Origin: Pseudochelatococcus sp.
GTDB lineage: Bacteria; Pseudomonadota; Alphaproteobacteria; Rhizobiales; Beijerinckiaceae
Reading direction: 5' to 3'
DNA: 64,000 bases
Assembly: GCF_050946405.1 (NCBI RefSeq)
Contig: NZ_JBMNUS010000013.1
Span: 71,443 to 135,442, forward strand
The position numbers and the translations under genes were made by a program. Below the pieces are notes generated by a model. That model ran no database searches. It saw only the letters and a program-made list of their open reading frames with translations, and was not told where the DNA came from. Shown piece by piece: positions 21,664 through 51,882 of this stretch; position 1 is the first letter of the stretch; each line of letters opens with the position of its first letter.

Positions 21664-21711
21664 GTCGCGGGGAGAGGCGGGCGCTTGCGTCGTCATCTCC
21701 CATATCGTTAC

Positions 21712-27700: not shown

Positions 27701-30700
27701 CCGTGGTGGTGGAGCCGGTGCAGAGCCGCGACCCGGCGGTGCAGCCGCGCGCCTTCCTGCACGAGTTGCGGGCGCTGACGGCGCAGGCGGGCGTCGCGCT
27801 CGTTTTCGACGAGACGATCACCGGCTTTCGCGTGCATCCCGGCGGGGCGCAACGCCATTTCGGCATCGAGGCCGATATCGTCACCTACGGCAAGGTCGTC
27901 GGCGGCGGCATGCCGATCGGCGTCGTCTCGGGAAGGCGGCATTATCTCGACGGCGTCGACGGCGGCGACTGGCAGTATGGCGACGATTCCGTTCCTTCCG
28001 CCCGCACCGCCTTCGTGGCCGGCACCTTCAACAACCATCCCCTGACGGCGGCGGCGGCGGAGGCGGTGCTGAAGCACCTCGCCGCCGAGGGGCCGCAGTT
28101 GCAGGAGCGGCTGAACGCCCGCACCGCCGCGATGTGCGCCGAGCTAGACGCCCTGTTCGCGGCCGAGGACGTGCCCGTCCGCATGGCGCATTTCAGCTCG
28201 CTGTTCCGTTTCGAGTTCGCCGGCGACACCGAGATCCTCAACTATCACCTGCTCAACAACGGCGTTTTCGTCTGGGAGGGGCGCAACTGCTTCCTCTCCA
28301 CCGCCCACAGCGACGACGACATCCGCTTCATCGTCGAGGCGGTGCGCAAGGGCATCGCGGAGATGCGGGCCGGCGGATGGCTGCCGCCGTCGCCGGGCCG
28401 CGCCGCGCCCGAGGCGCGCCAAGAGCATGGTGCGCGCGAGGAGGCAGGACCGGCGCCGCTCGGCCGGGGGCAGGGCGAGATGCTGGCGCTGCTCGAAGCG
28501 CGGCCGGAGGCGACGCTCGCCTATAACGAGATGGTGGCCTTCGCGCTCGACGGCCCGCTCGACCGGGAGGCGCTGCGCCGCGCCTTCGCCGGGCTCGTGC
28601 GGCGCCACGAGGCGCTGCGTTGCGCGGGCATCGACGAGACCGGCTGGCGCGCGGCGGCTCTTCCGCCCGCCGACCTGCCGGCGGAAGAGCCGGCCGAAGA
28701 AGGAGCGGTGATGGCGCGCCTGGCGCGCGAACTCGAAACGCCGTTCGATCTGCAACGCGGGCCGCTCATGCGCGCGCTGCTGCTGCGCCTTGCGCCGCAG
28801 CGGCATGTGGTGGCTTTCACCGTGCATCACATCGTCGCCGACGGCTGGTCGCTCGGCCTGATGGCGGGCGAACTCGCGGCGCTTTACGCCGCCGAACGGG
28901 CCGGCGTGGCGGCGGCGCTGCCGCCGGCCGAATCGTTCCGCGCCTTCGTCGCCTGGACGCAGGGCTTGGACGGCGGCGCGTCTCCGATGGCGGAAGACAG
29001 CGCGCCCGTCGTCCTGCCGGCCGCCGATTTCCCGCATCGCGCGTCCTTCCGCGGCGGGCGCGTCCACCGCCGCCTGTCGGCGGGCGGGCGGGAAGGCGAA
29101 GGCGTGTTCGATGCCGCGAGGCGTTTCGCGCGCGCGCATGACACAAGCCCGTTCACGGTGCTGCTCGCGGCCTATGCGCTGCTGCTCGGCCGCCTGTCGG
29201 ACCAGCGCCGGCTGACCATCGGCATTCCCGTCGCCGGCCATACGGAGGCCGGCTTGCCGGTGATGGTGGGGCAGGCGTCGGCGGTGCTGCCGCTGACGCT
29301 GGAACTCGATCCGCAAGCGGATTTCGCAGCCCTCGTTGCCCATGTGAAGGCGGCGCTGGCCGATGCCCGGCACGGCGTCGGCGGGCTCTTCACCGCGCAG
29401 GGCGGGCGGGGCACCGATGTCAACGTGCTGTTCAACCTCGACCGCGGTTTCCGGCTCGATTTCGAGGGATTGGGGCTGACGTGGATATCGCCTCCGGTCA
29501 GCCGGCCGAAAAAGGACCTGTTCCTCAACGTGCTGGAGCTGAACGGCGAAGCGCTGCTCGATCTCGATCATGACGGTGCGCTGGGCGATTCCGCCACGGC
29601 GGAGCGCTGGCTCGATTCCTTCCTGTCGCTGCTCGCCGAGGGGCTGCGCGCGCCCGCGACGCCGATCGCGCGCCTGCCGCTCTCCGCCGCTGACCGGGCG
29701 GCACAGGCGGATGATGTGCGCACGCGCGACGGCTTCGGCGCGCCGGCCGCCATCGGCACGGTCGCGCCGGTGGAGGCGCGCGACGATGCGGGGCTTTGGG
29801 CCGACACGGGGCGGCTCGGCCGGCTGCGGGCGGATGGCGGCGTCGAGGTGCTGGGCGAGGCGCGGCGTTTCCTGCGCACGCGCGGCGGCTGGCTCGATCT
29901 CGACCTTCCGGCGCGGGTGCTGCGGGAACACCCGGCGCTGGCCGATGCCGCCGTGATCGCGGAATCCGGCGGGCTGACCGCCTTCGTGACGCCGCGCGCG
30001 GGCGGGCAGGTCGACGGGCAGGCGCTCGCCGCCTATGCGGCGCTGCGGCTGCCGCCCGAGGCGCGGCCGGCCGCCTTCGTCGTGACGGATATCGCGCGCG
30101 ATGCCGGGGGGCGCGCCCTCCTGCGCGCCGATCACGGCGAGCGTCTCGCCACGCGCGCCCTCACGCCCGCCCGCACCGATGCGGAGAAGGCGGTCGCGGC
30201 GATCTGGGCCGAGGTTCTCGGGCTGGAGGAAGTCGGCGTCCTCGACAGCTTCTTCGACCTCGGCGGTCACAGCCTCAAGGCGCTCGCCATCCTCGCGCGC
30301 GTCGAGGCGCGGCTCGGGCGCACCGTGCGGCTGCGCGCCTTCTTCGAGGAGCCGACCGTGGCGGGGCTCGCGTCACGTCTGGGCGCGGGCGAGGCGCATG
30401 CCGTCATTCCGACCGCGGCACCGGCGGCGCATTATCCGGCGTCGAACGCGCAGGCGCGGCTGTGGATGCTCGACCGGATCGATCCCGGCCTTGCCGCCTA
30501 CAACATCGGCTTTTCGCTGCGCAGCGCCGCGCCTCTCGACGAAACCGCGCTGCGGATCGCGCTGGCGGGCCTCGCCGGGCGGCACGAGAGCCTGCGCACG
30601 GCGCTCATCGACCATGACGGCCTGCCGCGCCAGACGATCCTGCCCGCGTTGCAGCCCGAGCTGCGCATCGAGGATGCGGTGGGCGCGGACGCGGCGGCGC

Positions 30701-33700
30701 TCGTCGCGCGGGAGCGGGCCATCGCCGCCGAGCCCTTCGCGCTGGAGCGCGCGCCGCTCTGGCGGGCGGTGCTGCTGCGCGGGGGGCAAGGGGATATCGA
30801 GCCGGCGGGCGACCGTCTGGTGTTCGTGCTGCATCATGCCATTGCCGATGTGTGGTCGGTCGGCGTTTTCGTGCGGGATTTTCTGGCGTTGTACGCAGAG
30901 GCCGGCGGCGCACGGCTGCCGGCGCTGGCGCTGCAATACCGGGATTATGCGGTCTGGCAGGTGGGGCGGCCGGAGCCGCATCTTGACTGGTGGGTCGCGG
31001 CGCTGGCGGATGCGCCCCGGCTGGAGCTGCGGCCCGACCGGCCGCGCCCGCCGCTCAAGACCTTCAACGGCGATCATGTCGTTCTCGATGTGCCGGGGCC
31101 GGTCGCGGCGGCCCTCAAGGCGCTTGCCGCCGTCAACGGCGCGAGCGCGTTCACGGCGGTGGTCGCGGCGCTCTGCAACCTGCTGTGGGAAGAGACGGAG
31201 GCGCGCGACATCGTCATCGGCACGGTGACGGCGGGGCGCGACCATCCGGCGCTCGCGGACCAGATCGGTTTCTTCGTCAACACGCTGGCGCTGCGCGCGC
31301 GGGTGGCGCCGGAGGCGGGCTTCCTGCCGCTGCTCGCGGGCGTGCGCGATGCGCTGCTGGCGGCGGCCGAACATGGCGATACGCCGCTCGACCGGGTGGT
31401 CGAGGCGTTGAACCGCCCGCGCGATCCGGCGCGCAATCCGCTGTTCGAGGTCGTCGTGGTCATGGACGACCGCGAGGAGATCGACCGGCTGCTCGCCGGC
31501 ACCGGCTTCGCGCTCGCGGAAATCGACACGGCGACGGCGCAGTTCGACCTCACGCTTTATGTCACCGACGGCGCGGACGGCATCCGCATCAAGGCGACCT
31601 ACAATACCGACCTGTTCGACCGCGCCCGCATCGAGGGACTGATGGCGCGGCTGGCGGGGCTGATGGCGGGGGCGGCCGCCGATCCGGCGCGCGCGCTCGC
31701 CGCGCGGGCGCAGGGGGGCAGGGCGGCGCATGGTTCCGCGCCTGGCCAACGGCAAGGCTACGCGCCGTCGCGCCATCAGGAGCGGCTGTGGTTCGTGGAT
31801 CACTTCGAGCGCGGCGTGCTCTATCCGTCCGGGCCGACCTATTACAACATGCCGTTCGTGGTGCGCGTCGACGGCGCGGTCGATGCCGCGCGGCTCGCGG
31901 CTGCCGCTGCGGCGCTTGCGGCGCGGCATGAGGCGCTGCGCGCGGCGCTCGTCACGCAGGGCGACCGTCCGGCCGTCGAGGTCGCGGCGGCTGCGGCGCT
32001 GCCGGTTGCGGAGATTGCGGCGCCGGCGGGGGCGGGGCTTGCCGCAGTCGAGGAGGCGAGCCGCGCGGCCTTCGACCTCGATACGCCGCCGCTCGCCCGT
32101 CTGACGCTCTGCCGCGAGGCGGGGAGCGGCGCCTGCTGGCTCGCCCTGACGGTTCATCACGCCATGGGCGACCGGGCGGCGCTGCGCACGCTGGCGGAGG
32201 AACTCGCCCGCCTTTATGCCGACCCGGCCGCCGCCCTGCCGGAAATCCGCCCCTTCGGCGCGGCCCATGCGCTGCCGGAGCGGGCGGTGGAGGCCGGCCA
32301 TGAGGCGGATGCCGCCTATTGGCGCGAGGCGCTGGCGGGCGTTTCCGCGCTCGTGCTGCCGACGGACCGGCCCCGCCCCGCGATCCACACCTTCACGGCG
32401 GGCCGCGTCGCGGGGCGGCTCGACGCGGCGCTGCGCGGGCGGATCGACGCGCTGGCGGCGGCGCTCGGCGTGAGCCGGGCGGATGTGCTGCGCGCCGGTT
32501 ATCAGGCGTTGCTGCATCGTCTTTCCGGCCAGCGGGATGTCGTCATCGGCGAGACCGTGCAGCCGCCGCAACCGGCGCGGACGGTCGGGCCGCTCGCCAA
32601 TCTCCTGCCCTTGCGGCTCGACGTGGAGGCCGGCGAGGGCTTTGCCGCGCTGGTGCGGCGCGCGGCGGCGCGGCGGCAGGCGGATGCGGCGCATGGCGCG
32701 ATCCCCTTCGATCTGCTGGTGCTGGCGGTGAAGCCGCGCAACGACATGAGCCGCACGGCGCTGTTCGATGTGCTGTTCCACCATGAGAATGCGACCGCCG
32801 CCCTGCCGGCCGGGTGGGCGGCGGTCGACACCGGGCTCGGCTGGGGCAAGTACGATTTCGTGCTGTCCGTGGTGCCGGATGGCGACGGGCTGGCGGTGAG
32901 CCTCGTCTACAACCGCGACCTTTTCGACGCCGCCAGCGCGCAGGCCGTCCACGCGCGCTACGGGCAACTGCTGGCGGCGGCGCTGGCGCAGCCGGAGCGG
33001 CCGCTGTCTGCGCTCGACATCATGCTGCCGGGAGAGCGCGCGGCGCTGCTGGCCGAAGCCGGCGAGGTGGCCGATTACCCGCGCGGCCTCACGCTCACGG
33101 CGCGTTTCGAGGAGATGGCGGCGCGCCACGGGGCGCGCATCGCCGTCACCGACACCGACGGGGAACTGACCTATGCGGCGCTCGACGCGCGCGCCAACCG
33201 GCTGGCGCATCGCCTGCGCGCGCTCGGCGCGGGACCGGAGGCGCTGGTCGGGCTGTTCGTGGGGCGCACCTGGCGCATTCCCGCTGGCATTCTCGGCATT
33301 CTCAAGGCGGGCGCGGGCTATGTGCCGATCGATCCCGCCTATCCCGACGAGCGCATCCGCTTCATGGTGGCGGATTCGGGCATGCGGCTCATCGTCACCG
33401 ACGCTGAAAACGCGGCGGCGGCGCACCGCCTCGGCATTGCTACGGTGGTGATCGATGATCTGGCGGAGGACCTGCCCGTCGCGGCGACACCCGAAAATGC
33501 CGCGCCCGAAAATGCTGCGCCCGAGAACGTCGCTTACGTCATCTACACGTCCGGTTCCACCGGCATGCCCAAGGGCTGCGTCATCGAGCACCGCAACGTC
33601 ATCCAGCTCTTCTTCCACGAGGGGCGGCCGTTCGCCTTCGGGCCGGATGACGTGTGGAGCCTGTTCCACTCCGCCTGTTTCGACTTCTCGACGTGGGAGA

Positions 33701-36354
33701 TCTACGGCGCGCTGCTCTTCGGCGGCCGGCTCGTCGTCGTGCCGCAGGCGCTGACGCGTGAGCCCGCCGCCTTTCTGGAACTCGTCGCCCGCGAGGGGGT
33801 GACGGTGCTGAGCCAGACGCCGACCGCCTTTTACGGGCTGATCGAGGCGGCCCGGCAGCGCCCCGGCCTGCATCTTGCGCTGCGCGAGATCGTCTTCGGC
33901 GGGGAAGCGCTGGCGCCGGCCCGGCTTGCCCCGTGGCGGGCGCTCCACCCGGCCGCGCGCCTCGTCAACATGTACGGCATCACCGAAACGACGGTGCATG
34001 TGACGTTCAGGGAGATCGGCGACGCCGAGATCGCGGAGGGCCGCAGCGTCATCGGCCGGCCGCTGCCGTCCTGCGGCGTGTTGCTCGTCGGCCCCGATCT
34101 CGCGCCCTGCCCGCGGGGCGTGGCCGGCGAGATCGTGGTCGCGGGCCACGGCGTCGCCCGCCGCTACCTGAACCGGCCGGAACTCACGGCGGAGCGCTTC
34201 ATCGCGCACCCGGACCTGCCCGGCGGGCGCGTCTACCGCTCCGGCGATCTCGGCCGGATCGGGCTTGACGGCGAGCTGGTCTATCTCGGCCGCATGGACG
34301 ATCAGGTCAAGATACGCGGCTTTCGCATCGAGCCTGGCGAGATCGAGCGCCGGCTGGTCGCGCATCCCGCGATCCGCGATGCGGCCGTTCTCGCCGAGGG
34401 CGGCGAGGGCGGCGAGGGCGCGGCGGGCGAGAGCCTCTGCGCCTGTGTCGTCACCGATGCGCCGCCCGGCCGCGAGGAGCTGTTTCACTATCTGGCGGAC
34501 AAGCTGCCCGACTACATGATTCCGTCGCGCTTCCTGCGCGTGGCGCGCATCCCGCTCACGGCCAACGGCAAGGCGGACCGCCGGCGGCTCGCGGCGGAGG
34601 GCGGCGAGGCGATCGGCGCGGGGGGCGGCGCGGAGGAAGGCCGGGCGCCGCGAACGCCACTGCAAAAGGCGGTGGCGCGCATCTGGTGCGAGGTGCTGGG
34701 CGTGCCGCAGGTGGGGCTCGACGACAATTTCTTCGCGCTCGGCGGCCATAGCCTCAAGGCCAATCAGGTCGTGGTGCGCATCCGCCAGCGCCTCGGCGGC
34801 AGTCTCGACCTGCGCGATTTCTTCAGCGCGCAGACGCTCGCCGTGCTGGTCGAGCTGATCGAGCGGCGCGGGCTCGGCGCGGCGGGCACTATTGCCCCGG
34901 CGCCGTCCGCGCCCGACTATCCGCTCTCCTTCGCGCAGCGCCGGCTGTGGCTGGTGCAGAACATGAACCCCGATAGGGTGGCCTACAACATGGCCGGCGC
35001 CTTCGTCGTGGAGGGGGCCGTCGACCGGGAGCGGCTGGCGGCGGCGTTCCGGGCGCTGGCGGTGCGCCACGAGATCCTGCGCACGCGCTTCGTCTCGCGC
35101 CACGGCGAGCCCCGGCAGGTGGTGGATGCCGGCATCGACGGGCATATGGCGGTGTTCGAGGCCGGCCATGACGCGGGAAGCGGCGGGATGGCGGCCGTGG
35201 AGCGGCTGCTCGCGGCGGAGCTTCGCCATGTCTTCGATCTCGCGCGCGGGCCGCTGGCGCGGGTGCATCTGGCGGAGCTGCCCGTCAAAGGGCACGGCGG
35301 CTGCGCCATCATCATCAACCTGCATCATATCGTCTCCGACGGCTGGTCGGTGACGGTCATGCTGCGCGAGCTGGAGGCGCTCTACCGCGCGGCGCTGGCT
35401 GCGCCGCAGGCGACGCCGGCGGAGATCGCGGCGCGGGCCGGGCTGCCGGCGCTGCCGGTCCAGTACCGGGACTATGCCTTGTGGCAGCACGGCGAGGCGG
35501 CGGGCGAAGGGTTGCGGGCGGCCCGCTCCTACTGGCTCGCCCGCTTCGAGGACGAGGCGCCGGCGCTGGAACTGCCGGCCGACCGGCCGCGTCCGCATAC
35601 GCCCGGCGGGGCCGGCGCCATCGTGCATGCCGTGCTCGACGAGGAACTGACGCAGGCGCTGAGGGACCTCGCGCGCCGCCACGACATGAGCCTGTTCGGC
35701 GTGCTCGCCGCGCTCGTGCGGGTGCAGCTCGCGCTCCTGTCGGGGCAGGACGACATCACCATCGGCACGCCGGTCGCCGGCCGCAACCTGCTGGAGCTGG
35801 AGGGGCAGATCGGCTTCTACCTCAACCTGCTGGCGCTGCGCGGCCGCATCGGGCCGCAGGATGCCTTCGGCGATGTCCTGAAGGCGGAGCGCACCCTGGT
35901 GCTCGACGCCTTCGCCCATGAAGCCTGTCCGTTCGACCTCCTGGTCGGGGAGCTGGGCGTCACGCCGGAGCGCGGCCGCCATCCGCTTTTCGACGTGCTG
36001 ATCATTCTCCAGAACAACGAGCCCGTGCGCCTCGACCTTGCCGGGAGCCGGGGCGCGCCGCTGCGCGATACCAGCATCAGCGCCAAATACGATCTCAACT
36101 ATATGTTCGAGGACCGGCCGGCGCTCGAACTGCTGCTGGAATACGCGGCGGATCTTTTCGATGCGGACACGGCCCGCCGCATCGCCGGGGATTTCGTCGC
36201 CCTCGCGCGGGCGGTCGCCGCCGATCCCTCCATCGGCGTCGACAGCCTGCGGGATCGCATGCAGCGGGCCGTGCCGCCGCCGGATGCGCCAGCGGCGGAT
36301 GTGCTGGCGCATGACGCGGCGCATGGTGCGGCTTTTGCCGATGACGGGTGGTGA
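21712..36354 (+). CDS. Hybrid FAAL-PKS-aminotransferase-NRPS megasynthase: FAAL-ACP-KS-AT-ACP-AMT-C-(A remnant)-PCP-C-C-A-PCP-C
   Basis: A single ORF (21640..36354; the 21640 codon is TTG) carries all the motifs listed in the domain features below. The most likely ATG starts are 21712 (MSATIRQ) or 21763 ([14 protein letters not shown]). Confidence 0.95.
   Translation: [4880 protein letters not shown]
21850..23490 (+). other. Domain: fatty acyl-AMP ligase / acyl ligase (FAAL-like adenylation domain)
   Basis: [22 protein letters not shown] (about 22290-22350), [37 protein letters not shown], and a terminal SGKVQRF. Confidence 0.85.
23560..23790 (+). other. Domain: ACP1
   Basis: [19 protein letters not shown]; the candidate Ppant Ser codon is at 23668..23670. 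Confidence 0.7.
23845..25110 (+). other. Domain: ketosynthase (KS)
   Basis: VDTACSS with Cys at 24340..24342, [27 protein letters not shown], and it ends at [10 protein letters not shown]. Confidence 0.9.
25370..26290 (+). other. Domain: acyltransferase (cis-AT, malonyl-type signature)
   Basis: [16 protein letters not shown] with Ser at 25651..25653, and SHAFHSP (the HAFH motif is associated with malonyl-CoA selection). Confidence 0.85.
26530..26770 (+). other. Domain: ACP2
   Basis: [18 protein letters not shown]; Ser codon at 26644..26646. Confidence 0.85.
27080..28390 (+). other. Domain: PLP-dependent class III aminotransferase (AMT, glutamate-1-semialdehyde aminomutase-like)
   Basis: [42 protein letters not shown], and [13 protein letters not shown] with the candidate PLP Lys at 27892..27894. 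Confidence 0.85.
28450..29690 (+). other. Domain: condensation C1
   Basis: HHIVADGWS at 28825. Confidence 0.85.
29700..30150 (+). other. Vestigial adenylation-domain remnant (C-terminal subdomain only, motifs decayed)
   Basis: There are only about 190 codons between the end of C1 and the PCP1 serine. WADTGRL stands in place of A7, [22 protein letters not shown] in place of A8, and DAGGRALLR in place of A10. No A1-A6 motifs are present. Confidence 0.7.
30170..30390 (+). other. Domain: PCP1
   Basis: [11 protein letters not shown]; Ser codon at 30271..30273. Confidence 0.9.
30420..31700 (+). other. Domain: condensation C2
   Basis: [16 protein letters not shown] at the start; HHAIADVWS at 30832. 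Confidence 0.85.
31760..33010 (+). other. Domain: condensation-like C3 (tandem to C2, atypical active-site context HHAMGDRAA)
   Basis: It starts [30 protein letters not shown], with HHAMGD at 32155. No carrier domain lies between C2 and C3. Confidence 0.75.
33070..34600 (+). other. Domain: adenylation A2 (by-eye code DFWSVGMVHK, Thr-like)
   Basis: [14 protein letters not shown] (about 33540), [51 protein letters not shown]. Confidence 0.85.
33490..33534 (+). repeat. In-frame 15-bp tandem repeat x3 ([15 protein letters not shown]) inside A2
   Basis: cccgaaaatgccgcg / cccgaaaatgctgcg / cccgagaacgtcgct, read directly. Confidence 0.9.
34650..34870 (+). other. Domain: PCP2
   Basis: [11 protein letters not shown]; Ser codon at 34750..34752. 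Confidence 0.9.
34915..36354 (+). other. Domain: C-terminal condensation C4
   Basis: [16 protein letters not shown] at the start; HHIVSDGWS at 35323. The protein ends about 340 codons later with no carrier or TE domain. Confidence 0.85.
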
Positions 36355-36357
36355 GCC

Positions 36358-38247
36358 ATGTGCGGCATCGTGGGATTTCTCGACCGGGATGGCGCGCCGC
36401 GCCCGCACGATCTGCTGCGCCGCATGGCGGAGGCCGTGCGCCACCGGGGGCCGGATGACGAGGGCTTCTTCACCGGCGACGATATCGGTCTCGGGTTCCG
36501 CCGTCTGTCGATCGTCGATCTGGAAGGCGGGCGGCAGCCGATGTTCGCCGGCGACGGGCGTGTGGCGGCCATCTGCAACGGCGAGATCTACAACCACGCC
36601 GAGCTGCGGGCCGATCTCACGGCGCGCGGCCACCGCTTCCGCACGCGCTGCGACACGGAGGTGATTCCGGCGCTGTTCCTCGAATACGGGCTCGACTTTC
36701 CGCGCCGCATCAATGGCCAGTTCGCCTTTGCCGTCTACGATCGGGAGACGCGCCGGCTGGTGCTGGGGCGCGACCATGTGGGCATCGCGCCGCTGTTTCA
36801 TGCCGAGGTCGGCGGGCTGCTGTTGTTCGGCTCGGAAATCCGGGCGCTGCTGTGCCATCCGGGCCTTGCCCGCGATGTCGACCTGACGGCGCTCGACCAG
36901 ATCCTGACCTTTCCGGGGCTGGTGAGCCCGCGCACGATCCTGGCGAACGTGCGCGCGCTGCCGCCGGGGCATCTGCTGGTGGCCGATCCCGGCCGGCCGC
37001 CGCGCCTCGATCGCTTCTGGGATCTCGATTTTCCGCGCCATGATGAGTTTCCGCGCCATGACGAGATCGGCCCGCCCGGCCGGGCGGACGATTACGTCGA
37101 CGAGCTGGACGCCGCGTTGCGGCAGGCGGTGCGCTACCGGTTGCAGGCCGATGTGCCGGTCGCCGGCTATCTGAGCGGCGGCCTCGACAGTTCGCTCGTC
37201 GCCGCCATCGTCGCCGATCTGGAGCCGGGGGCCACGCGGCATACGTTCTCCATCACCTTTCCCGACAGGGCGATCGACGAGCGCGAGCCGCAGCGCCTCG
37301 TCGCGGCGAGGCTCGGCACCGCCCATCACGAGCGGGAGATCGATCCCGCGCGACTCGCCGCCGGGCTCGACCGCATCGTGGGCTGTGCCGAAGCGCCGCT
37401 GCGCGAATCCTATAACGTATGCTCGCTGCATCTGTCGGGCATGGTGCGCGAGGCCGGGCTCAAGGTGGTGCTCACCGGCGAGGGCGCGGACGAGCTTTTC
37501 GGCGGCTATGTGGGCTACAGGCTCGATGCGGAGCGCGCGCCTGACGCGGACGACCCTTACGATCTCGACGCGCTGATCGAGGGCGAGTGGCGCGAGCGCC
37601 TGTGGGGAGACAGCCGTTTCTTCTACGAGAAGGATTATGGCGCGAGCCGCGACATCCGCCGCGAACTCTACGCGCCGGCGCTGGCCGAGCGCTTCGAGGC
37701 GTTCGACTGCCTCGCCCATCCGCTTGTCGACCGCGCGCAGATCGAGGGCCGGCATCCGTTTCATATCCGCTCGTATCTCGATTTCAAGCTGCGCCTGGCC
37801 GATCATCTGCTGGCGGATCACGGCGACAGGGTGAGCTTCGCCAATTCCGTCGAGGCGCGCTATCCGTTTCTGGACATCGGCGTCATCGACGTGGCGCGCC
37901 GCATCCCGCCCGCCCTCATGGTGCATCAGGGCGAGGAAAAGCATATCCTCAAGCGTCTCGCCCGGCGCTACCTGCCGGCGCAGATCGTGGAGCGCAAGAA
38001 GTTCAGCTTCGTCGCCCAGAGCAGCGCCACGCTGCTGCGCGAGGGCGTGCCGCGCGTGCGCGAGGTGCTCGACGAGGCACGCGTCGCGGCGGACGGCTAC
38101 TTCAGCCCGGAGGCGGTCGCGCATCTCAAGCAGCGGCACGCCGCGCCGGGCGCGGAACTCAACCAGACCTTCGAAGACGACTTCCTGATGGTCGCACTGA
38201 CCTTCGGGATCCTGCGCGAACAATTCGATCTGCCGAAACTCTCATGA
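36358..38247 (+). CDS. Asparagine synthetase B-type glutamine-dependent amidotransferase
   Basis: N-terminal nucleophile MCGIVG, the PP-loop SGGLDSS, and a length of 629 aa. It starts 4 nt after the megasynthase stop codon, and its stop overlaps the next NRPS start (ATGA). Confidence 0.9.
   Translation: MCGIVGFLDRDGAPRPHDLLRRMAEAVRHRGPDDEGFFTGDDIGLGFRRLSIVDLEGGRQPMFAGDGRVAAICNGEIYNHAELRADLTARGHRFRTRCDTEVIPALFLEYGLDFPRRINGQFAFAVYDRETRRLVLGRDHVGIAPLFHAEVGGLLLFGSEIRALLCHPGLARDVDLTALDQILTFPGLVSPRTILANVRALPPGHLLVADPGRPPRLDRFWDLDFPRHDEFPRHDEIGPPGRADDYVDELDAALRQAVRYRLQADVPVAGYLSGGLDSSLVAAIVADLEPGATRHTFSITFPDRAIDEREPQRLVAARLGTAHHEREIDPARLAAGLDRIVGCAEAPLRESYNVCSLHLSGMVREAGLKVVLTGEGADELFGGYVGYRLDAERAPDADDPYDLDALIEGEWRERLWGDSRFFYEKDYGASRDIRRELYAPALAERFEAFDCLAHPLVDRAQIEGRHPFHIRSYLDFKLRLADHLLADHGDRVSFANSVEARYPFLDIGVIDVARRIPPALMVHQGEEKHILKRLARRYLPAQIVERKKFSFVAQSSATLLREGVPRVREVLDEARVAADGYFSPEAVAHLKQRHAAPGAELNQTFEDDFLMVALTFGILREQFDLPKLS
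37030..37065 (+). repeat. In-frame 18-bp tandem duplication (FPRHDE FPRHDE) in the AsnB-like gene
   Basis: tttccgcgccatgatgag / tttccgcgccatgacgag, with one synonymous difference. Confidence 0.9.
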
Positions 38248-41200
38248 CAGGACAAGGCCCCGTGCACTCCACCATGCAGCCTCCCGTGCAGCGTCCCATG
38301 CAGCGTAGCTCCTACGTCGACCGGTTCGAGGAGAATGCACGGGCGCGCCCCGCCGCCGCCGCGCTGGCGACGGCGGCGGGTGAAGTGTCCTACGGCGCGC
38401 TCGACGCGCGGGCGCAGCGCCTCGCCCGGCGGCTCGCGCGGCTGGGGGCGGGGAAGGGCGTCATCGTCGGCCTGTTTCTGGACGCCGACGAAACCTATGT
38501 CGCGGCGCTGCTCGGCGCCGGCAAGACGGGCGGCGCCTTCCTGCCGCTGCCGCCGGACCTGCCGCCGCTGCGCGTCGCCGCCTGCCTCGCCAAAGCGGAA
38601 TGCGGGATCGTCGTGACGCTGGGCCGCCACCGCGCCGCGCTGGATGCGGCGCTGGCTGAAGCCGGCCGATCGGTCGCGGTCATCGAGGCGGATGCGCCGG
38701 ACGATGCCGGCGACGCCGCGCCGGTGGCGCGCGCCATCGGCCCTCACGATCCCTGCTACGTCATGTTCACGTCGGGCTCCACCGGCGCGCCGAAGGCCAT
38801 TCTGGGGCCGCATCGCAGCCTCTCCCACTTCCTGCGCTGGGAGGTCGGCGAGTTCGGGCTGGATGAGACGGTGCGCGGCTCGTGGCTCGCGCCCGTCACC
38901 TTCGATGTCAGCCTGCGCGACATCCTCGTGCCGCTCATGGCCGGGGGCACGCTCTGCATTCCCGATGCCGAGACGCGGATGGTGCCGCGCAAGCTGGTCG
39001 ACTGGCTGGCGCGCGAAAAGGTGACGCTGGTGCATTGCGTGCCGACGGTGCTGCGCCTGATCACGCGCGAGCTGGCCGACCGCGGCGGCGATGCCGGCCT
39101 TGCGGTGCGTCATCTGCTGGTGGCGGGCGAGCCGCTGCTCGGCGCGGATGTCGCGGCCTGGCGGGCGGCGGCAGGCGGGCGCGCCGAGGTCGTGAACCTC
39201 TATGGCCCGTCGGAAACCACGCTGGCGAAGGTGTTCCACCGCATCGGCGAATTGCCCGCCGATCCGCGGCGGGTGCTGCCCATCGGCCGGCCGCTGCCCG
39301 ACACATCGGTGCTCGTTCTTTCCAACGGCCGGCTTTGCGGCCCGCAGCAGATCGGCGAGATCCACATCCGCACCGCCTATCCCTCGCTCGGCTACCTGAA
39401 CGACGCGGCGCTGACGGCGGCGAGCTTCATCCGCAATCCGCTCGGCAACGACGATGCCGACATCGTCTACAAGACCGGCGATCTGGGGCGCTACCTGCCG
39501 GACGGCACCGTCGAATGCCTCGGCCGGCAGGACAATCAGGTCAAGGTCAATGGCGTGCGCATCGAGCTTGCCGAGATCGAGGTCGCGCTGCGCGCCGTCG
39601 CGGGCATCGCCAAAGCGGCGGCGGCGGTGCATGCGGGCGGCGGGGCCGATCCCGTGCTCGTGGGTTATTATGTGCCGGATGCCGGCGCGGCGCCGTCGGC
39701 GGAGGCGATCAAGGCGCAGCTCGGGCGCATCCTGCCGGCGGCCATGCTGCCGCACGTGCTGGTGCGTCTCGACGACCTGCCGCGCACCATCAGCGGCAAG
39801 CTCAATCGCAAGGCGTTGCCGCGCCCGGAGGAGCTGTTCTACGCCGAGCATGCCTATGTGGCGCCGCAGGGCGAGACGGAAGACAAGCTCGCGGCCATCT
39901 GGCGCGAGATCTTCGGCCTGACGCGCGTCGGCGTCGAGACCGCCTTTCACGATTTCGGCGGCGACAGCCTGCGGGCGATCCGCGCCGTGCAGAAGATCTT
40001 CCAGACATTCTCCGTCGAGATCAGCCTGAAGGATTTTCTCGCCGCCGCGACGATCCGGGAACTGGCGCGCCTCGTCGCGGCCGCAGTCCCCGCGCCGGTG
40101 AGCGCCATTGCGCGCGCGGCCGATGCGGCAAGCTATCCCGCCACCCCGGCCCAGAACCGGCTGTGGCGTCTCGACCGGCTCGGCATCGCCCCCACCGCCT
40201 ACAATCTGACGGAAGCGTGCGAGCTGCTGGGGCCGGTGAACGAGGCGGCGCTGGAGCGCGCCTTTCGCGACCTGATCGGCCGCCACGAATCGCTGCGCAC
40301 CACATTCGAGGAGGATGCGGACGGCAACGCGCGCCAGATCGTGCACCATGACACGCCCTGGCGGCTCGAACGCGTCGACCTGCGCCGCCATGCGGAGCCG
40401 GACCGCGCCGCCGCGCTGCTGGCGCGGGACAATGCCGGGCATCGCTTCGACCTGCATCGCGGCCCGCTGCTGCGCGTCGTGCTCGCCCGCCTGCCGGATG
40501 CGGAGGGCGCGGCGCGGCATGTGCTGCTGTTCAACATTCATCACATCGTCGCCGACGTGTGGTCGCTCGGCGTGCTGGTGCGCGAGGTGGCGGCGCTCTA
40601 TGCGGCGGCACTCGCCGGCCGCGACGCCGGCCTTGCGCCGCCGGCGCTGCAATTGCGGGATGTGGCCGTGTGGCAGGCCGGGCGGGCGGCCGCCGGCGCG
40701 CTGGACGGCGACCGCGCCTATTGGCTGGAGCGCTTCTCCGCGCTGCCCGCGCCGCTCGACCTGCCGGCCGACCGGCCGCGCCCGCCGGTGCAGACCTTCA
40801 ACGGCACCACGCGGCGCTTCCGCCTGCCGGCGGACCTGACCGGGCAGCTCGACGGCCTCGCGCGCCGGCACGGCACGACGCGCTTCGCCGTGGTCACGGC
40901 GCTGACGAAGGCGCTGCTGCACCGTTATACCGGACAGACGGATATCGTCGTCGGCAGCCCCGTCGCCGGCCGCACGGATGCGGCGCTGGCGGACCAGATC
41001 GGCTATTACGTCAACACGCTCGCGCTGCGCGACACTGCGGAGGCGGGAGCGCGCTTCGCCGACCTGCTCGCGCGCGTGGCGGCGACGGTGCGCGAGGGGC
41101 TCGCGCATCAGGATTACCCGTTCGACGCGCTGGTGCAGGAACTGCCGCTCGAACGCGACATGAGCCGCTCGCCGCTGTTCGACGTCATGGTCGTCGACCA

Positions 41201-44200
41201 CGCCTTCGAGGATGGCGACCTGCGGCTGGAGGGCGTGCGCGTCATGCCCTTCGGCGACCGGAACGCCTGGAACTTCAGCCGTTTCGATCTCGTCTTCCAT
41301 TTTCAGGACGAGGCGGACGAGCTGGTGCTCGATCTCAACTACAACACCGACCTGTTCGACGATGCGCGCATCCTGCGCATGGGCGCGCATTTTGCGGAGC
41401 TGGCGCGCGCCGCAGCCGGCGACGAGTCGCAGGCTGTCGGGGAACTTAACCTGCTGCCGGCGGACGAAAGCCGGGAACTGGCCGCTTTCACGCACGGGCC
41501 GGTCGTGGCGCGCGATGCGGCGGCGACCATCGTCTCGACCTTCGTGGCGGCGGCGCGCCGTCACGCCGGGCGCCCCGCCGTCATCGATGCCGGAGGGCGC
41601 GTGCTCTCCTATGGCGCGCTCGACGGGGCGACGGACCGGCTGGCGCACGATCTCATCGCGGCGCATGGCGTCGCCCCCGGCGAGCGCGTGGCGGTGTTCG
41701 CGAGGCGCACGCCGGAATCGGTCGCCGCCATGCTCGCGGTGATGAAGGCCGGCGGCGTCTATGTGCCGATCGATCCCGACTATCCGGCCGCGCGGATACG
41801 GTTCATGCTGCGCCAGGCCGGCTGCCGGCTGGCGCTCGCCGACAGCGGGGCGGCCCCGGTCGCGGATGTGCAGGTCGTCGCCGTCGCGCCCCGGCTCGCG
41901 GCCGGCGACGCGGCGCAGCCCGTCGACCGCAGCGGCGCGGGCGAGGCGGCCTATGTGATCTTCACCTCCGGGTCGTCGGGCGAGCCGAAGGGGGTGGCGG
42001 TCGCCCACGGCGGTTTCGTCAACATGTCGTCGGGGCAGATCGCCCTTTTCGGACTCACGCCCGAGGACCGGGTGTTGCAGTTCGCCTCGCCGTCCTTCGA
42101 CGCCTCGCTCGCCAACATGTTCATGGCGCTGTTCAGCGGCGCGGCGGTGGTGCTGCCGTCTGCCGGCGACATCAAGAACACGGCCGATTTCCTGGCGCTG
42201 CTGGCGCGGAGCGGCACCACGGCGCTCACCCTGCCGCCGACCTATCTGCGCGCGCTGCGGCGGGCGGAACTGGCCGGGGTGAGGGTGCTCATCACGGCGG
42301 GCGAGGAAGCGCCGGCCGCCGACCTGCTCCATTACGCGCAGCGGCTCGCCGCCTTCAACGCCTACGGCCCGACGGAGTTTTCGGTCTGCGCCACGGTGCA
42401 TGAGGTCAGCGAGCGAGACCGCGACCGCCTGCGCCTGCCCATCGGCCGGCCGTTGCCGAATACGAGCGTGCATGTTCTCGATGCCGCGCTCAAGCCCGTC
42501 CCGGTCGGGATCGCGGGGGAAATCTGGCTCGGCGGCAGCGGGCTCGCGCTCGGCTACGAGGGCGATGCGGCGCAGACCGCCGCGCGCTTCGTCACGCATC
42601 CGCACACGGGCGAGCGCCTCTACCGCACCGGCGATCGCGGCGCGTGGCGCGAGGACGGCGCGGTCGATTTCCTCGGCCGCGCCGACGATCAGGTGAAGGT
42701 GGCGGGCCACCGCATCGAGCCGGGCGAGATCGAGGCGGCGATGCGCGCGGTGCCGGGCGTGCGCGACGCCCATGTCGCCACAGTGGCGCGGGCCGACGGC
42801 TCCGCCGCGCTCGCCGCCTGGTACTGCGCGGACGAGCGCGTGGAGCTGTGGCCTTCGGTGGCGGAGTTCTACGTCTACGACGACATCGCCTATGGCAGCA
42901 TGGCCGCCGACGAGGGGCGCAACCGGCGCTACCGCGAGGCTTTCGCGCGCCACCTGCCCGGCAGGACGGTGGTGGATATCGGCACCGGGCCGGTGGCTAT
43001 CCTCGCGCGCCTCGCCATCGAGGCCGGCGCGCGCAAGGTCTACGCCATCGACAGGCTGGAGGCGACGGCGCGCAAGGCGCGGGAGACCGTGGCGGCGCTC
43101 GGCCTCGACGACCGCATCACGGTGATCCACGGCGACGCCCTGACCCTGGAGCTGCCCGAGACGGTGGATTTCTGCATCTCCGAGATCGTCGGCGCCATCG
43201 GCGGGGCGGAGGGCGCGGCGCGCATCATCAACGGCGCGCGCCGCTACCTGAAGGACCCGGCGGCCATGCTGCCGCAGTTCAGCGACACGCGCATCGCGGC
43301 GCTGGCGCTGCCTCACGACCGGCTCGCGCCGGGCTTTTCGGACATCGCGGCGCATTACGTCGACAAGATCTTCGCGGAGGTCGGCCAGCCGTTCGACCTG
43401 CGCCTGTGCCTCAAGAACCTGCCGCGCGAGGCCATCGTCTCCACCGACGCGCCGTTCGAATATCTGGACTACACGCGCGAGGTGCCGGTCGAGGCGACGC
43501 ACACGGTCGAACTCGTCGTCACGCGGGACAGCGAGATCACCGGCTTCCTCGTCTGGCTGCGGCTCGGCGTCGATGCGGATGCGGTGGTGGATATTCTCGA
43601 CAACCCCGGAAGCTGGCTGCCGGTGTGGCTGCCGGCCTTCGCCGTGCCGGTCGCGGTGGCGGCGGGCGACCGCATCGCCATCACCATCGCGCGGCGGCTT
43701 TGCGGCAACGGTTTCAACGTCGACTTCTTCCTCGACGGCACGGTGACGCGGGCGGCCGGCGAGGCGGTGCCGTTCGCCTGCCGCAGCGCGCATTTCGGCG
43801 ACGGCTTCCGCCGCACGCCCTTCCATGCGGGGCTGTTCGCGGGGGAAGGGGTGCCGCGCTTCGAGGCGCCGACGCCGGCCGTGGTGCGCCGTCACCTGCT
43901 GGGCGCGGTGCCGGCGCATGCCGTTCCGTCCTTCCTCGTGCCGCTCGACAGGCTGCCGGTGACGATCAACGGCAAGATCGATCGCGCCGCCCTGCCGGCC
44001 CCCGGCGATGTCGCGGAAGGAGCGCGCCGGGGAGAGGCGCTTGCGCCGCAGACGCCGCTGGAGCGGCAGGTGCTGGATGTGTGGCGCGAGATCATGAGCC
44101 GGCCGGACATGACGGCGGGCGATGATTTTTTCAGCATGGGCGGCGATTCCATCCGCGCCATCCAGATCGTCTCGCGCCTGCGCCAGCTCGGCTGGAAAGC

Positions 44201-45683
44201 CGAAATCCGCGACGTGTTCCAGAATCCGACCGTCGCGCAGTTTGCGGGCGTTCTCGCGCCGGTACGCGCGCGGGCCGATCAGGGCGCGGTTGTCGGCCCC
44301 GCGCCGCTGACGCCGGTGCAGCGCTGGTTTCTCGAAACGAGCGTGCGGCCGGACCATTTCAACCAGGCGGTGGTGTTGCATGCGGAGGCGATCGACGCGG
44401 CCGCGGCCCAGGCGGCGCTCGAAGCCGTCTGGCGTCATCACGACGCCCTGCGCGCGGTCTTCACCCATGATGGCGGCGGCTGGTCGCAGTCCCTGCTCCC
44501 GCCCGGCGAGCCGCCCCGCGTGGTGGAGATCGCAGCCGATGATCCGGCCGCCTTCGCGGAGGCGGCGCGCGCCGTACAGGCGGGTTTCCGCATCGACCGG
44601 GGGCCGCTGCTCGTGGCGGCGCTGCTGGCGCGCGGCGCGGCGACGACGGAGGATGCAGGGGGAAGCCGGCTGCTGCTCTGCGCGCACCATCTCGTGATGG
44701 ATATCGTGTCGTGGGGCATCCTGATCGAGGACTTCACGGCGGCCTACCTGGCTCATCAGGACGGCACGACGCCGCGCCTGCCGGACAAGACGGATTCCTG
44801 CCGCGACCATGCGCGGGCGCTGGAATCGATCGCGGCGCGGGTGGACTGGACCGGCCGGCTCGGCTACTGGCGCGCGCTGGAGCGGGATGCGCCGCTGCTG
44901 CCGGGCTTCGCCGGCCCGTTCCGCGTCGCGGATGCGTTCACCCTCCAGGGTGTGCTGGCCGCCGGGGTGACGGCGGCGCTGCTCGGCCCGGCCAATCACG
45001 CCTATACGACGGGAACGGAAGACCTGCTGCTCGCCGCTCTTGCTCTCGCGATCGAGCGGCATTTCAGCCGCGCCGGGGCGCTGGTGACGGTCGAGAGCCA
45101 CGGCCGCGAATACCCGCTGGCCGATCTTCTCGGCGATGGCGAGGCGCCCGACGTCACCCGCACGGTCGGCTGGTTCACGGCCTTCCATCCGTTCCGGCTG
45201 GAGGCGGCGTCCGGGATCGGCGAGACCGTGCGCGGCGTCAAGGAGGCGCTGCGCCGCGTGCCGGATCGCGGCTGGAGCCATCTCCTGATGCGGACGCTGC
45301 CGGCGGAATGGGTGGTGCCGGACCTGCGGCCGCAGATCGGCTTCAACTATCTCGGTCAGATGCGTTCGGCCCCCGCCGGCGTCGGCCCCTTCGCCGTCGA
45401 CTGGGACGCGCCCGGCGGCGCGGTGGCGGCGGATGCGCACCGTCCGCATGCGATCGACGTGCTGGCCATGGCGGTGGACGGGGAGCTGCGCGTCAGCCTC
45501 GACGTCGACGAGGCGGCGATCGGACGGGAGGCGGGCGAGGTGCTGCTGCGCCGCTTCCTCGCGGCGATCGAGGAAGTCGTCGCCCATTGCCTCGCGCGGG
45601 AAACCGCCGAGCTTACCCCGTCCGACATGACCTACGACAAGCTGTCGCTGGACGATCTCGATCGTCTGCTGCTGGCCGAATGA
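38244..45683 (+). CDS. NRPS: A-PCP-C-A(embedded methyltransferase)-PCP-E
   Basis: The start is the ATG at 38244 ([12 protein letters not shown]...), within ORF 37587..45683. Motifs are listed in the domain features below. Confidence 0.95.
   Translation: [2479 protein letters not shown]
38300..39830 (+). other. Domain: adenylation A3 (by-eye code DVRHLALLAK, not assignable)
   Basis: [67 protein letters not shown]. Confidence 0.85.
39870..40080 (+). other. Domain: PCP3
   Basis: [11 protein letters not shown]; Ser codon at 39966..39968. Confidence 0.9.
40130..41440 (+). other. Domain: condensation C5
   Basis: [16 protein letters not shown] at the start; HHIVADVWS at 40539. Confidence 0.85.
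41520..42830 (+). other. Domain: adenylation A4, N-terminal part through motif A8 (by-eye code DAATIAAVCK, Phe/Tyr-like)
   Basis: [69 protein letters not shown]. Confidence 0.85.
42831..43880 (+). other. Embedded class I SAM-methyltransferase domain with protein-arginine-methyltransferase (PRMT)-like motifs, inserted between A8 and A9 of A4
   Basis: [81 protein letters not shown]. The A domain resumes with [21 protein letters not shown]. Confidence 0.7.
43881..44000 (+). other. Domain: adenylation A4, C-terminal part (A9-A10)
   Basis: [30 protein letters not shown]. Confidence 0.8.
44050..44260 (+). other. Domain: PCP4
   Basis: [11 protein letters not shown]; Ser codon at 44148..44150. The GGDSI form is the one usually seen upstream of E domains. 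Confidence 0.9.
44290..45683 (+). other. Domain: epimerization (E), C-terminal, with a COM-donor-like tail
   Basis: E motifs [18 protein letters not shown] (44685), [38 protein letters not shown]. The tail reads [22 protein letters not shown]. Confidence 0.85.
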
Positions 45684-50836: not shown

Positions 50837-51586
50837 CCGGGTGTTTCCGAGCCGCATATGCGCGAGGACTTGCGCGTGAAACTCGTCCGCGTTCTCGCGC
50901 AGGAAGAAGTGCCCGCCCGCGATCGTCACCAGCTCGAAACCATCGCCCGCGACCGCCGCCCAGCCGGCGATCTCGCGCGGCGAGACGAGCGGATCGTCCG
51001 CGCCGGCGAAGGCGACGACCGGACAGGTCAGGCGCTCGACCGGAAAGGGCAGGGACGTTTCCGCCAGGGCGAAATCCGCCCTGAGCGTGCGCTCGAACAA
51101 TTCTCGGAACTCCGCGTTGCGCACGATTTCCTCCGGCGTGCCGTTGTAGGAGGACAGCCGGCGCCAGAATTCTTCGGAAGGCAGGTCATGCAGCGGCGGC
51201 ATGCGGGGCGGGGCGCCGGGAGGGCGATGCGCGGCGACCATGACGCAGGCGGGCGCGGGAAGACCGAGACGATCCGCCGCCCGCGCGAGACAATAGGCGA
51301 CGCGCGCGCCAAGCGAGTAGCCGAGCAGGACGTAGGGACGATCGAGCAGCGGCGTGAGCGCCTCGATGAGGCGCGCCAGCAGGAGGGGCATCGAGGCAAT
51401 GGGGGTCTCCGAAAAGCGGCTTTCGCGGCCGGGGAACTGCGCGGGCAGGACTTCGAGCCGCTCATGAGCGCGCGCATGCGCCCGCAATCCGGCGAAGGCG
51501 GATACGCCGCCACCCGCGAAGGGCAGACAGATCAGCCGCATGGCAGGGCGACCCGTACCCCCGGCGGCGGGAAACCAACGGCGCAT
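50819..51586 (-). CDS. Type II thioesterase (GrsT/TEII family alpha/beta hydrolase)
   Basis: RLICLPFAGGG, GYSLGARVAYCLA (GxSxG), and a C-terminal GGHFFL. The start is uncertain (ORF extends to 51703; the Met at 51586 gives a typical length of about 255 aa). Confidence 0.85.
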   Translation of the reverse strand: MRRWFPAAGGTGRPAMRLICLPFAGGGVSAFAGLRAHARAHERLEVLPAQFPGRESRFSETPIASMPLLLARLIEALTPLLDRPYVLLGYSLGARVAYCLARAADRLGLPAPACVMVAAHRPPGAPPRMPPLHDLPSEEFWRRLSSYNGTPEEIVRNAEFRELFERTLRADFALAETSLPFPVERLTCPVVAFAGADDPLVSPREIAGWAAVAGDGFELVTIAGGHFFLRENADEFHAQVLAHMRLGNTRSETPV

Positions 51587-51882
51587 GGCCGCAGCAGAGA
51601 CGGACGGTTCCGCTCCTTCTTCGCCAGCAGCGGTAATGTCTCTCTCCATTGCCATCATGTCTTCGGGGTATCGGATCGTGCGCATTATTATAGCAGGCGA
51701 CAAAGGTATAGCTCTCGACTCCGATGGTCAACTATGATAGGTGTAGGATATTACTTTCATGAAATAGAAAGTGTTCTGGACAGTGTGCGCCGGTTGCGTC
51801 GGGGCGGGGCCTGAAAGCGGTGGGCGGTGGACTGTCACGGTTGCGAATTCCATCTCGTTTCATACTCCCGGAGGAGAGCATC

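Follow-up and report, generated by a model that had tools for sequence, protein, structure and literature searches.

In GatCAB transamidation, and in the peptidoglycan amidation carried out by the AsnB-family enzymes LtsA and AsnB1, an acidic residue is attached to a carrier or scaffold first and is then amidated with glutamine-derived ammonia. Here we describe an AsnB-type gene, called asnB below (positions 36358-38247, + strand), in a stretch of 64,000 nucleotides from the alphaproteobacterium Pseudochelatococcus sp. (RefSeq assembly GCF_050946405.1, contig NZ_JBMNUS010000013.1, positions 71,443 to 135,442), which was analysed whole and which we call the window. The gene lies inside a split module of a nonribosomal peptide synthetase (NRPS), directly before an adenylation (A) domain, A3, and its peptidyl carrier protein (PCP), PCP3. 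GatCAB belongs to a different enzyme family and the substrate of LtsA and AsnB1 is a lipid-linked peptidoglycan precursor; neither works with an NRPS carrier.

Closer in logic are MgsD (iso-migrastatin/glutarimides) and GbnC (gladiolin), AsnB homologues of trans-acyltransferase (trans-AT) polyketide synthase (PKS) pathways that have been assigned to the amidation of malonyl- or succinyl-acyl carrier protein (ACP), the evidence for GbnC being genetic and isotopic, not in vitro (bioRxiv 10.64898/2026.04.24.720606). Like the asnB product, both are stand-alone proteins that use glutamine as the nitrogen donor and have a dedicated carrier adjacent. The substrate proposed for them is a dicarboxylic acyl thioester, whose free carboxylate would be amidated before chain extension. 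PCP3 also has an ACP-like DSL motif. However, the partner in the window is an amino-acid-loading NRPS A-PCP unit for an internal residue rather than an AT-loaded ACP for a starter, and its context is NRPS and cis-AT PKS rather than trans-AT PKS. The likeness drawn here is one of logic: the asnB product appears to resemble most the amide synthetases that act on carrier-bound starter units of PKS pathways, moved to an internal NRPS module.

The gene cluster as a whole recalls the lipopeptides of the iturin class. In iturin and mycosubtilin synthetases (MycA/MycB), a front end of fatty acyl-AMP ligase (FAAL), ACP, ketosynthase (KS), in some cases acyltransferase (AT), ACP, aminotransferase (AMT) and condensation (C) domains provides a beta-amino fatty acyl starter, and one module is split between its C and A domains (the C|A split). 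Both features recur in the window, the front end there being FAAL-ACP-KS-AT-ACP-AMT-C, and to this extent the iturin-class comparison made in a first-pass annotation of the sequence stands. It does not extend to the modules: module 1, where an iturin-type synthetase has a functional Asn-activating A domain, has lost the core of its A domain, C domains occur in tandem, and the codes are Thr-like, DVRHLALLAK, Phe/Tyr-like and Asp-like, with none of the Asn or Gln type. We know of no Bacillus iturin-type cluster with an amidotransferase gene at the C|A break.

The sequence comparisons below suggest, with the considerations for and against about evenly weighted, that the asnB product is a pathway-dedicated glutamine-dependent amidotransferase that forms a functional pair with A3-PCP3, and that it would convert an acidic residue loaded by A3, probably aspartate and most likely while tethered to PCP3, to Asn or isoAsn. 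We infer from sequence which amino acid is used, which of its carboxylates is amidated, and that the reaction takes place on the carrier and neither precedes loading nor follows release. The arrangement itself is real and extends further than the first-pass annotation saw.

The asnB gene at the C|A break

The asnB open reading frame (ORF) encodes 629 amino acids (aa), begins MCGIVG and consists of an N-terminal nucleophile (Ntn) glutaminase domain (approximately aa 2-200) and a PP-loop synthetase domain (aa 249-599). The ATP pyrophosphatase motif SGGLDSS, within the stretch YLSGGLDSS, was located from the translation (aa 273-279, positions 37174-37194, + strand) and is invariant in all homologues. 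The AsnB homologue that had been called from these two motifs is borne out by translation, Pfam and the family model TIGR01536. The position of the gene exactly at a C|A break is likewise as the first-pass annotation had it. The upstream megasynthase ends in the LCL-type C domain C4 (aa 4426-4869, positions 34915-36246, + strand; motifs YPLSFAQRRLW and HHIVSDGWS), which is the C half of split module 3. The next protein, NRPS 2, opens with A3 (aa 28-519, positions 38325-39800, + strand; code DVRHLALLAK), followed by PCP3 (positions 39882-40076, + strand; ACP-like motif FGGDSLRAI), the proposed site of amidation.

At the upstream junction the megasynthase stop codon (TGA, 36352-36354) is followed by a spacer of three nucleotides (GCC) and then by the asnB ATG at 36358, and the claim that asnB starts just after that stop is correct. 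The window has a G+C content of 65-75%, the genes of the biosynthetic operon are co-directional, and the G+C content at third codon positions (GC3) of asnB, 0.86, equals that of the flanking genes. The asnB ORF and the domain layout are not chance ORFs.

At the downstream junction the asnB stop codon overlaps a candidate ATG of NRPS 2 (ATGA, 38244-38247), which had been read as translational coupling. The overlap is present in the sequence, and a GTGA overlap is kept at one orthologous locus (L004), but the start in use may be a different one, because at two other orthologous loci (L006 and L007) the downstream NRPS starts 14 nucleotides (nt) past the asnB stop, at a position homologous to GTG 38262 in the window. 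The conserved N-terminus of NRPS 2, MQRxSYVD, corresponds to ATG 38298. Relative to L006 and L007, the 5' end of NRPS 2 (38262-38300) has a 36-nt in-frame insertion with a near-repeat, ATGCAGC(G/C), and so offers several in-frame alternative starts. The candidates for NRPS 2 are 38244, 38262, 38274 and 38298, any of which leaves a gap of at most 50 nt after asnB. GTG 38262 is the most likely of these, judged by the orthologues, and coupling through the overlap is possible but not established.

Family placement and active site

The asnB product matches Pfam GATase_7 (PF13537, 5e-41) and Asn_synthase (PF00733, 3e-76) and passes the generic NCBIfam asparagine synthase model TIGR01536 (434.7 bits, cut-off 267.1). 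It has in common with Escherichia coli AsnB (PDB 1CT9; TIGR01536 / PRK09431) the two-domain architecture and the catalytic residues. In the alignment the glutaminase residues C1, R49, N74, E76 and D98 are all kept, as are the PP-loop and the ATP/adenylation residues E348, D351, Y357, K429 and K449. The Cys nucleophile directly follows the initiator Met in all 46 members of the clade described below and in nearly all other homologues. Because every glutaminase and adenylation residue is conserved, the asnB product is predicted to be a working glutamine-dependent amidotransferase of class II (Ntn).

The differences from E. coli AsnB lie in an insertion of about 70 aa and in the residues around the substrate. 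We take K376, D384 and R387 and the loop T322/T323/R325 of E. coli AsnB to be its free-aspartate recognition elements. In an alignment that is less certain near K376-R387 because of the insertion, the K376 position is Glu in the window protein and variable in the clade, the R387 position is an invariant His across the clade, and D384 is kept in the window protein and in only about half of the members associated with A3-type domains. The TTIRAS loop (T322-R325) is replaced by RESYNVCS. By these sequence measures the protein is a member of the AsnB superfamily and not a housekeeping AsnB.

It is very improbable indeed, then, that asnB is simply the ordinary asparagine synthetase of the organism, merely sited in this operon, which is how the database annotation 'asparagine synthase (glutamine-hydrolyzing)' would have it. 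The score against the housekeeping AsnB equivalog PRK09431 (295.9 bits, in three separate stretches) is below the cut-off of 499, the GC3 is that of the neighbouring genes, and, as described below, the homologues form a monophyletic, NRPS-restricted clade whose NRPS synteny is conserved across phyla.

Specialised members of the superfamily fit no better. The protein falls below the cut-offs for the lasso-peptide isopeptide cyclase (NF033535, 202 against 525 bits), the XrtA/PEP-CTERM amidotransferase (TIGR03108, 397 against 817 bits) and the NAGGN amidotransferase (TIGR03104, 334 against 570 bits). Cyclases and beta-lactam synthetases of the AsnB family lack Cys1. The intact Cys1 together with weak matches to 1JGT (47 bits) and 1Q15 (25 bits) rules out a beta-lactam or carbapenam synthetase (BLS, CarA), and Cys1, the sub-threshold score and the NRPS/PKS neighbours, in place of a RiPP precursor and protease, rule out a lasso cyclase. 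The best solved homologue, PDB 7YLZ (200.6 bits over residues 1-556, compared with 179 bits for 1CT9), is TsnB9 of trichostatin biosynthesis, a protein of about 620 aa that has the same insertion and is a distant relative only. TsnB9 acts on a free polyketide acid with hydroxylamine as donor; genes making a donor of the hydroxylamine type are absent from the window cluster.

A widespread clade restricted to NRPS loci

We compared 83 homologue loci, namely three close relatives and 80 further loci from GTDB species genomes among the matches listed. The closest relatives came from exact and near look-ups and were absent among the matches listed by the genome scan. Neighbouring genes were called by tblastn with the domains of the window itself in flanks of 6-10 kb, and a neighbour-joining (NJ) distance tree of 85 sequences was rooted on E. 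coli AsnB.

The order megasynthase-asnB-NRPS-ABC transporter is kept at the exact protein and at relatives with 79%, 73% and 66% AsnB identity in other genera. The sources of these relatives are a JGI metagenome, Rhizobiales bacterium 32-66-11 and the cultivable Azospirillum sp. TSH100 (GCA_003115975.1, locus L007). Homologues with at least about 40% identity form one clade, comprising 45 of the 83 loci. Its hosts include Alpha-, Beta-, Gamma- and Deltaproteobacteria as well as Acidobacteriota, Verrucomicrobiota, Lentisphaerota, Chitinophagaceae, Streptomyces and Kitasatospora, Acidimicrobiales, Lachnospiraceae, other Bacillota and myxobacteria. NRPS genes surround 42 of the 45 clade loci, and the remaining three are short contigs. 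An A-PCP unit of the A3 type is directly downstream in 30 of the 45 and nearby in five more, while seven have other NRPS domains. In contrast, for the 38 loci that fall outside the clade, tblastn of the flanks found no NRPS domain at all. These comparisons indicate that asnB belongs to a widespread, uncharacterised, NRPS-restricted lineage and is not a local accident. The residues P186, G187, Y271, E350, Y352, N353, G386, R471, H483 and H488 make up a signature of the clade. The phylogenetic placement that the first-pass annotation had put forward as a check comes out as one clade in the rooted tree, with BLS and CarA set apart by their weak matches and the lasso cyclase by its model score.

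The partner module

The code of the A3-type partner, D[VAP]RH[LF][AS]L[LM]xK, is conserved in about 40 loci from Proteobacteria to Streptomyces, Lachnospiraceae and myxobacteria; we know of no substrate assignment for the window version, DVRHLALLAK. The solved structures closest to A3 are ordinary NRPS A domains (LgrA module 2). A kinship with beta-amino-acid ligases was considered and set aside, as A3 is no closer to them.

Two features distinguish the A3-type modules from their neighbours. First, of 33 such A domains at least 22 stand at the start of a polypeptide, compared with 3 of 75 other A domains at the same loci, and the C|A break therefore appears to be a property of the A3-type module generally. 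Streptomyces and Kitasatospora have a free A-PCP didomain of 592 aa. A free A-PCP, or an A domain on its own polypeptide, is the usual layout for tailoring on the carrier. Second, among 43 PCPs located directly after an A3-type domain at AsnB loci, 34 have the carrier motif GGDSL or GGNSL, while 41 other PCPs without a following epimerization (E) domain have GGHSL. GGDSL and GGNSL are ACP-like or typical of partners of E domains, yet here a C domain comes next. The C domains downstream of A3-PCP have an unusual HHxxxD[VA]W motif, and as a test for a D-residue on PCP3 we compared their types: all are LCL-like, with or without a racemase gene. In the window this domain is C5 (positions 40131-41480, + strand), LCL-like with the motif HHIVADVWS, in which the Gly of HHxxxDG is replaced.

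A domains with a DxRH code are also found without AsnB. The metagenome scan with the A3-type alignment matched generic motifs, mostly in unrelated A domains, and L089-L094 alone were informative. In a small set of five metagenome loci there is no AsnB within flanks of 6 kb; four of the five show a C-A fusion, and the carriers that follow the DxRH A domains have GGHSL in five of six cases and GAHSL in the sixth. Therefore, this type of A domain does not depend on AsnB for its occurrence. It is the DSL carrier and the split architecture that appear to accompany AsnB, as would be expected if AsnB acts on the loaded carrier, and would be hard to explain by substrate supply.

This bears on the earlier suggestion that the enzyme simply provides a precursor. 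Free L-Asp, or D-Asp where a racemase is present, would be converted to Asn, D-Asn or isoAsn, and A3 would be a non-canonical A domain of the Asn type. Such a role is coherent, since all catalytic residues of AsnB are intact, TIGR01536 is passed, racemase, AsnB and A domain together would make a consistent route to D-Asn, and the adjacency of the genes fits action before loading as well as after. We consider it possible but doubtful. The A3 pocket has Arg239 and His278 instead of the Lys and Glu of Asn codes, and the canonical Asn code DATKVGEVGK is absent from the approximately 40 clusters read. Ordinary fused modules can have a DxRH A domain although their 6-kb flanks lack AsnB, the PCP motif differs according to whether AsnB is present, and K376 and R387, which we take to bind aspartate in E. 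coli AsnB, are not kept. Moreover, the window cluster includes no racemase, and a supply of L-Asn would duplicate primary metabolism.

A second A3-like A domain is present at loci of Streptomyces and Kitasatospora (L029-L041 and L075, at approximately 19.4-20.6 kb). Its code, DATQLALLAK, has Thr and Gln in place of Arg239 and His278 and is otherwise identical to the A3 type. The two codes form a natural pair that might be used to find out what is recognised at positions 239 and 278.

The substrate of A3 and a proposed route

An Asp/Glu-racemase-family gene (Pfam PF01177, Asp_Glu_race; best NCBIfam matches cysteate racemase and TIGR00035) stands between or beside asnB and the A-PCP gene at 13 loci from Actinomycetota, Acidobacteriota, Bacteroidota and myxobacteria. 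Because of this neighbourhood and of Arg239 and His278 in the A-domain pocket, the sequences point to an acidic amino acid, most simply aspartate, as the A3 substrate. In microcystin and nodularin synthetases, the modules for D-MeAsp and D-Glu use an Asp-type racemase, McyF, and link the residue through its side-chain carboxylate, leaving the alpha-carboxylate free with no AsnB involved. We take DARHVGIFVK and DPRHSGVVGK to be microcystin codes with the same D-x-R-H start as the A3-type codes (McyB2/McyE), an assignment that a literature search did not confirm. The racemase association, the HHxxxD[VA]W motif and these unconfirmed codes hint at a beta-linkage of residue 3.

Amidation of an Asp residue to Asn or isoAsn was among the roles suggested by the first-pass annotation, and it is the one that we favour. 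The likely target, however, is the residue loaded by A3 rather than that of the terminal module with the code DLTKLGHIGK, because the clade co-occurs with A3-type A-PCP units and not with canonical Asp modules. The code of the terminal module itself was read correctly, as an Asp-like A5. The presence of this canonical module, and the relationship of the best solved homologue, 7YLZ, to an enzyme acting on free acids, a hydroxyamidotransferase, are what would support late tailoring, in which a free carboxylate of the released or assembled peptide, such as that of the terminal Asp added by module 5 or the one pendant on residue 3, is amidated in the manner of TsrC, PdmN and TsnB9. We regard this as unlikely. 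The clade is associated with the A3-PCP unit and not with Asp-code modules or thioesterase (TE) domains, and the correlation with the PCP motif favours action at the carrier. The cassette also occurs without a full peptide assembly line, as asnB / A-PCP / C / amino-acid racemase on a Streptomyces plasmid and as AsnB / A-PCP-BtrH_N, with no C domain, in rumen Lachnospiraceae.

In the route that we propose for amidation on PCP3, A3, with its pocket lined by Arg and His, would activate an acidic amino acid, most probably Asp, and load it onto PCP3. The N-terminal domain of the amidotransferase would hydrolyse glutamine, and its PP-loop domain would adenylate the remaining free carboxylate of the tethered residue. 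Delivery of ammonia to the adenylated carboxylate would then give Asn if the residue is alpha-linked, or isoAsn if it is beta-linked. C4 would join the upstream beta-amino-acyl-X1-Thr chain to the amine of residue 3, and C5 would hand the chain to an N-methylated aromatic residue. The E domain, C6, A5 (for Asp) and TE would finish the product and probably cyclise it.

Several observations weigh against amidation on PCP3. Five clade members (L022, L023, L032, L033 and L035) have NRPS neighbours and no A3-type domain within 10 kb. Fusions of AsnB to NRPS or carrier domains were absent from the best 150 matches of a HMMER search among 1.84 billion representatives, and a full-text literature search returned no paper on AsnB paired with an NRPS A-PCP and no characterised member of the clade, the one relevant precedent being the preprint on GbnC and MgsD. 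Since the generic asparagine synthase model is passed, free Asp-to-Asn chemistry is possible. Carriers of A3-type modules with GGHSL occur, as at L026 and L043, and the five AsnB-less DxRH loci may have an AsnB at a greater distance than their flanks cover. The assignment of Asp to A3 leans on the Arg/His pocket, the racemase neighbourhood and the unconfirmed McyB2/McyE codes.

More broadly, and more tentatively than for the window pair itself, we suggest that an A domain with a DxRH code, a carrier with the ACP-like GGDSL motif and an AsnB-like enzyme dedicated to them may together be the first NRPS counterpart of carrier-dependent transamidation. Asp, or D-Asp where a racemase is present, would be loaded, possibly via its beta-carboxylate, and amidated in situ, and the amide could be permanent or a cryptic protecting group. 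An amidase for the removal of a cryptic amide was not identified for the window cluster. Under this proposal the window pair may also serve PCP1.

Architecture of the cluster and module 1

The layout of the cluster was obtained from chunked Pfam scans of the window proteins together with motif alignments. The hybrid megasynthase of 4904 aa (21640-36354, + strand) has the order FAAL-ACP-KS-AT-ACP-AMT-C1-[A relic]-PCP1-C-C-A2-PCP2-C4. NRPS 2 (38244-45683, + strand, with the ambiguous start codon discussed above) continues with A3-PCP3-C5-A4-PCP4-E, A4 carrying an N-methyltransferase insert. NRPS 3 (53873-58387, + strand) has the order C6-A5-PCP-TE; the coordinates are those of the longest ORF, and the true start is probably later. 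The motif IYPLTPFQEG marks C6 as DCL-type, which fits the E domain that ends NRPS 2. The remaining codes are DFWSVGMVHK for A2 (Thr-like), DAATIAAVCK for A4 (Phe/Tyr-like) and, as given above, the Asp-like code of A5.

Module 1 has no functional A domain, as the first-pass annotation had recognised. The spacer of approximately 170 aa between C1 and PCP1 is a decayed C-terminal piece of an A domain without an A core, in which degenerate A7-A10 motifs are visible (relic, aa 2691-2850, and PCP1, aa 2851-2913; together 29710-30378, + strand). By blastp its best match is to residues 382-499 of A3 (E = 1e-4), with A2 and A5 matched too. This raises the question of how PCP1 is loaded. The acyl-adenylate of the amidotransferase might charge it, as the first-pass annotation had speculated, or A3 and AsnB might serve both PCP1 and PCP3 in trans. 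The relic's best match to A3 would suit a service of this kind, as would the C domain after PCP1, which is 43% identical to C5 and has the HHxxADVWS motif in common with it. As a conserved function, however, the charging of PCP1 is not supported, and we consider such a service quite improbable. Most clade clusters have no A-less module, and the intact glutaminase domain argues for ammonia transfer rather than thioester formation. PCP1 is a GGHSL carrier, and the likeness to PCP3 that would be expected under shared servicing was not seen: it is 52% identical to PCP2, its nearest relative, and 34% identical to PCP3.

The two C domains between PCP1 and A2 (30427-33054, megasynthase aa 2930-3805) differ from each other. 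The first is the C5-like domain just mentioned, with the motif HHAIADVWS. We had considered it as an E domain, which together with the beta-lactamase-fold gene described below would have made an acyl-D-Asn/ClbP-like prodrug motif; this was ruled out by its identity as a C domain. The second is divergent (HHAMGDRAA) and, because of this divergence and its position before the Thr-type A2, may be of a modifying type, for example dehydrating. A comparable PCP-C-C order follows an A3-type module in a metagenome locus (L091, 7429-9829).

Neighbouring genes and variant loci

Downstream of NRPS 2 is an ABC transporter gene (45724-47364, + strand), which directly follows in orthologous clusters too. 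The next gene (47402-50836, + strand) encodes a protein of 1144 aa with an N-terminal class C/AmpH-like domain of the beta-lactamase/penicillin-binding protein (PBP) fold and a C-terminal autotransporter beta-barrel. One possibility is that this protein is displayed on the cell surface as a hydrolase and serves to mature or detoxify the product. A gene of this kind also directly follows the ABC transporter in L004 and L006, and weaker relatives are found near the AsnB homologue in L022-L024. The gladiolin amidase GbnM was considered as a beta-lactamase-fold counterpart of this protein and rejected, since GbnM is malonamidase-like (bioRxiv 10.64898/2026.04.24.720606).

A type II thioesterase gene (50819-51703, - strand) follows. 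A DUF697 gene (51820-52512) and an SPFH/Band-7 gene (52879-54318) lie between NRPS 2 and the terminal NRPS, and an Sfp-type phosphopantetheinyl transferase gene (58261-59166, - strand) is located at the end of NRPS 3. Just upstream of the cluster (16567-19602) are genes for an AsnC/Lrp-type regulator (- strand), an alanine racemase (17096-18346) and a protein of the D-amino-acid-oxidase family. These genes resemble a catabolic unit of the dadAX type and probably have nothing to do with the cluster, although the window has no racemase other than this one.

Some clade loci have an unusual organisation. In Sphaerotilus and Limnohabitans (L008, 3035-12007, and L009), the aminotransferase domain closes the PKS part, asnB and A3-PCP come next, and there is no C domain that could link the beta-amino acyl chain with the first residue. 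Upstream in L008 are two ORFs (832-1866 and 1866-3167, the latter of 434 aa) that have no Pfam match. In a Lachnospiraceae locus (L036, 11894-14749) and in L038, an A3-type A-PCP is fused to BtrH_N, a domain like the butirosin acyl-carrier:acceptor transferase, and has asnB, another A-PCP and a glycosyltransferase as neighbours, while C domains are absent. Here the amidated residue may be passed from the carrier to a non-peptide acceptor. The compact operon on the plasmid of Streptomyces sp. NBC_01216 (NZ_CP108680.1; L169, 20001-26693 and 33563-41052), with its asnB, A-PCP, C and amino-acid racemase genes, adjoins genes for a tyrosine 2,3-aminomutase, a stand-alone C protein, an AMP-binding protein and a 4-HPA-3-hydroxylase-like protein. 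This set of neighbours recalls the beta-tyrosine cassette of enediyne clusters.

Implications

If the enzyme supplies only Asn or D-Asn, the result is a modest refinement of annotation. If it amidates an aminoacyl thioester, this would be a new on-line tailoring step in NRPS logic, and it would explain a recurrent and otherwise odd split between C and A domains. It would also provide a rule for genome mining, in which a gene of this AsnB clade together with a DxRHLALLAK code and a GGDSL PCP would indicate a residue of the Asn or isoAsn type that current predictors miscall or leave blank. The clade also draws attention to orphan lipopeptide clusters that form a family, with members in Azospirillum-like Alphaproteobacteria, roseobacters, Burkholderiales, actinomycetes and rumen Lachnospiraceae.

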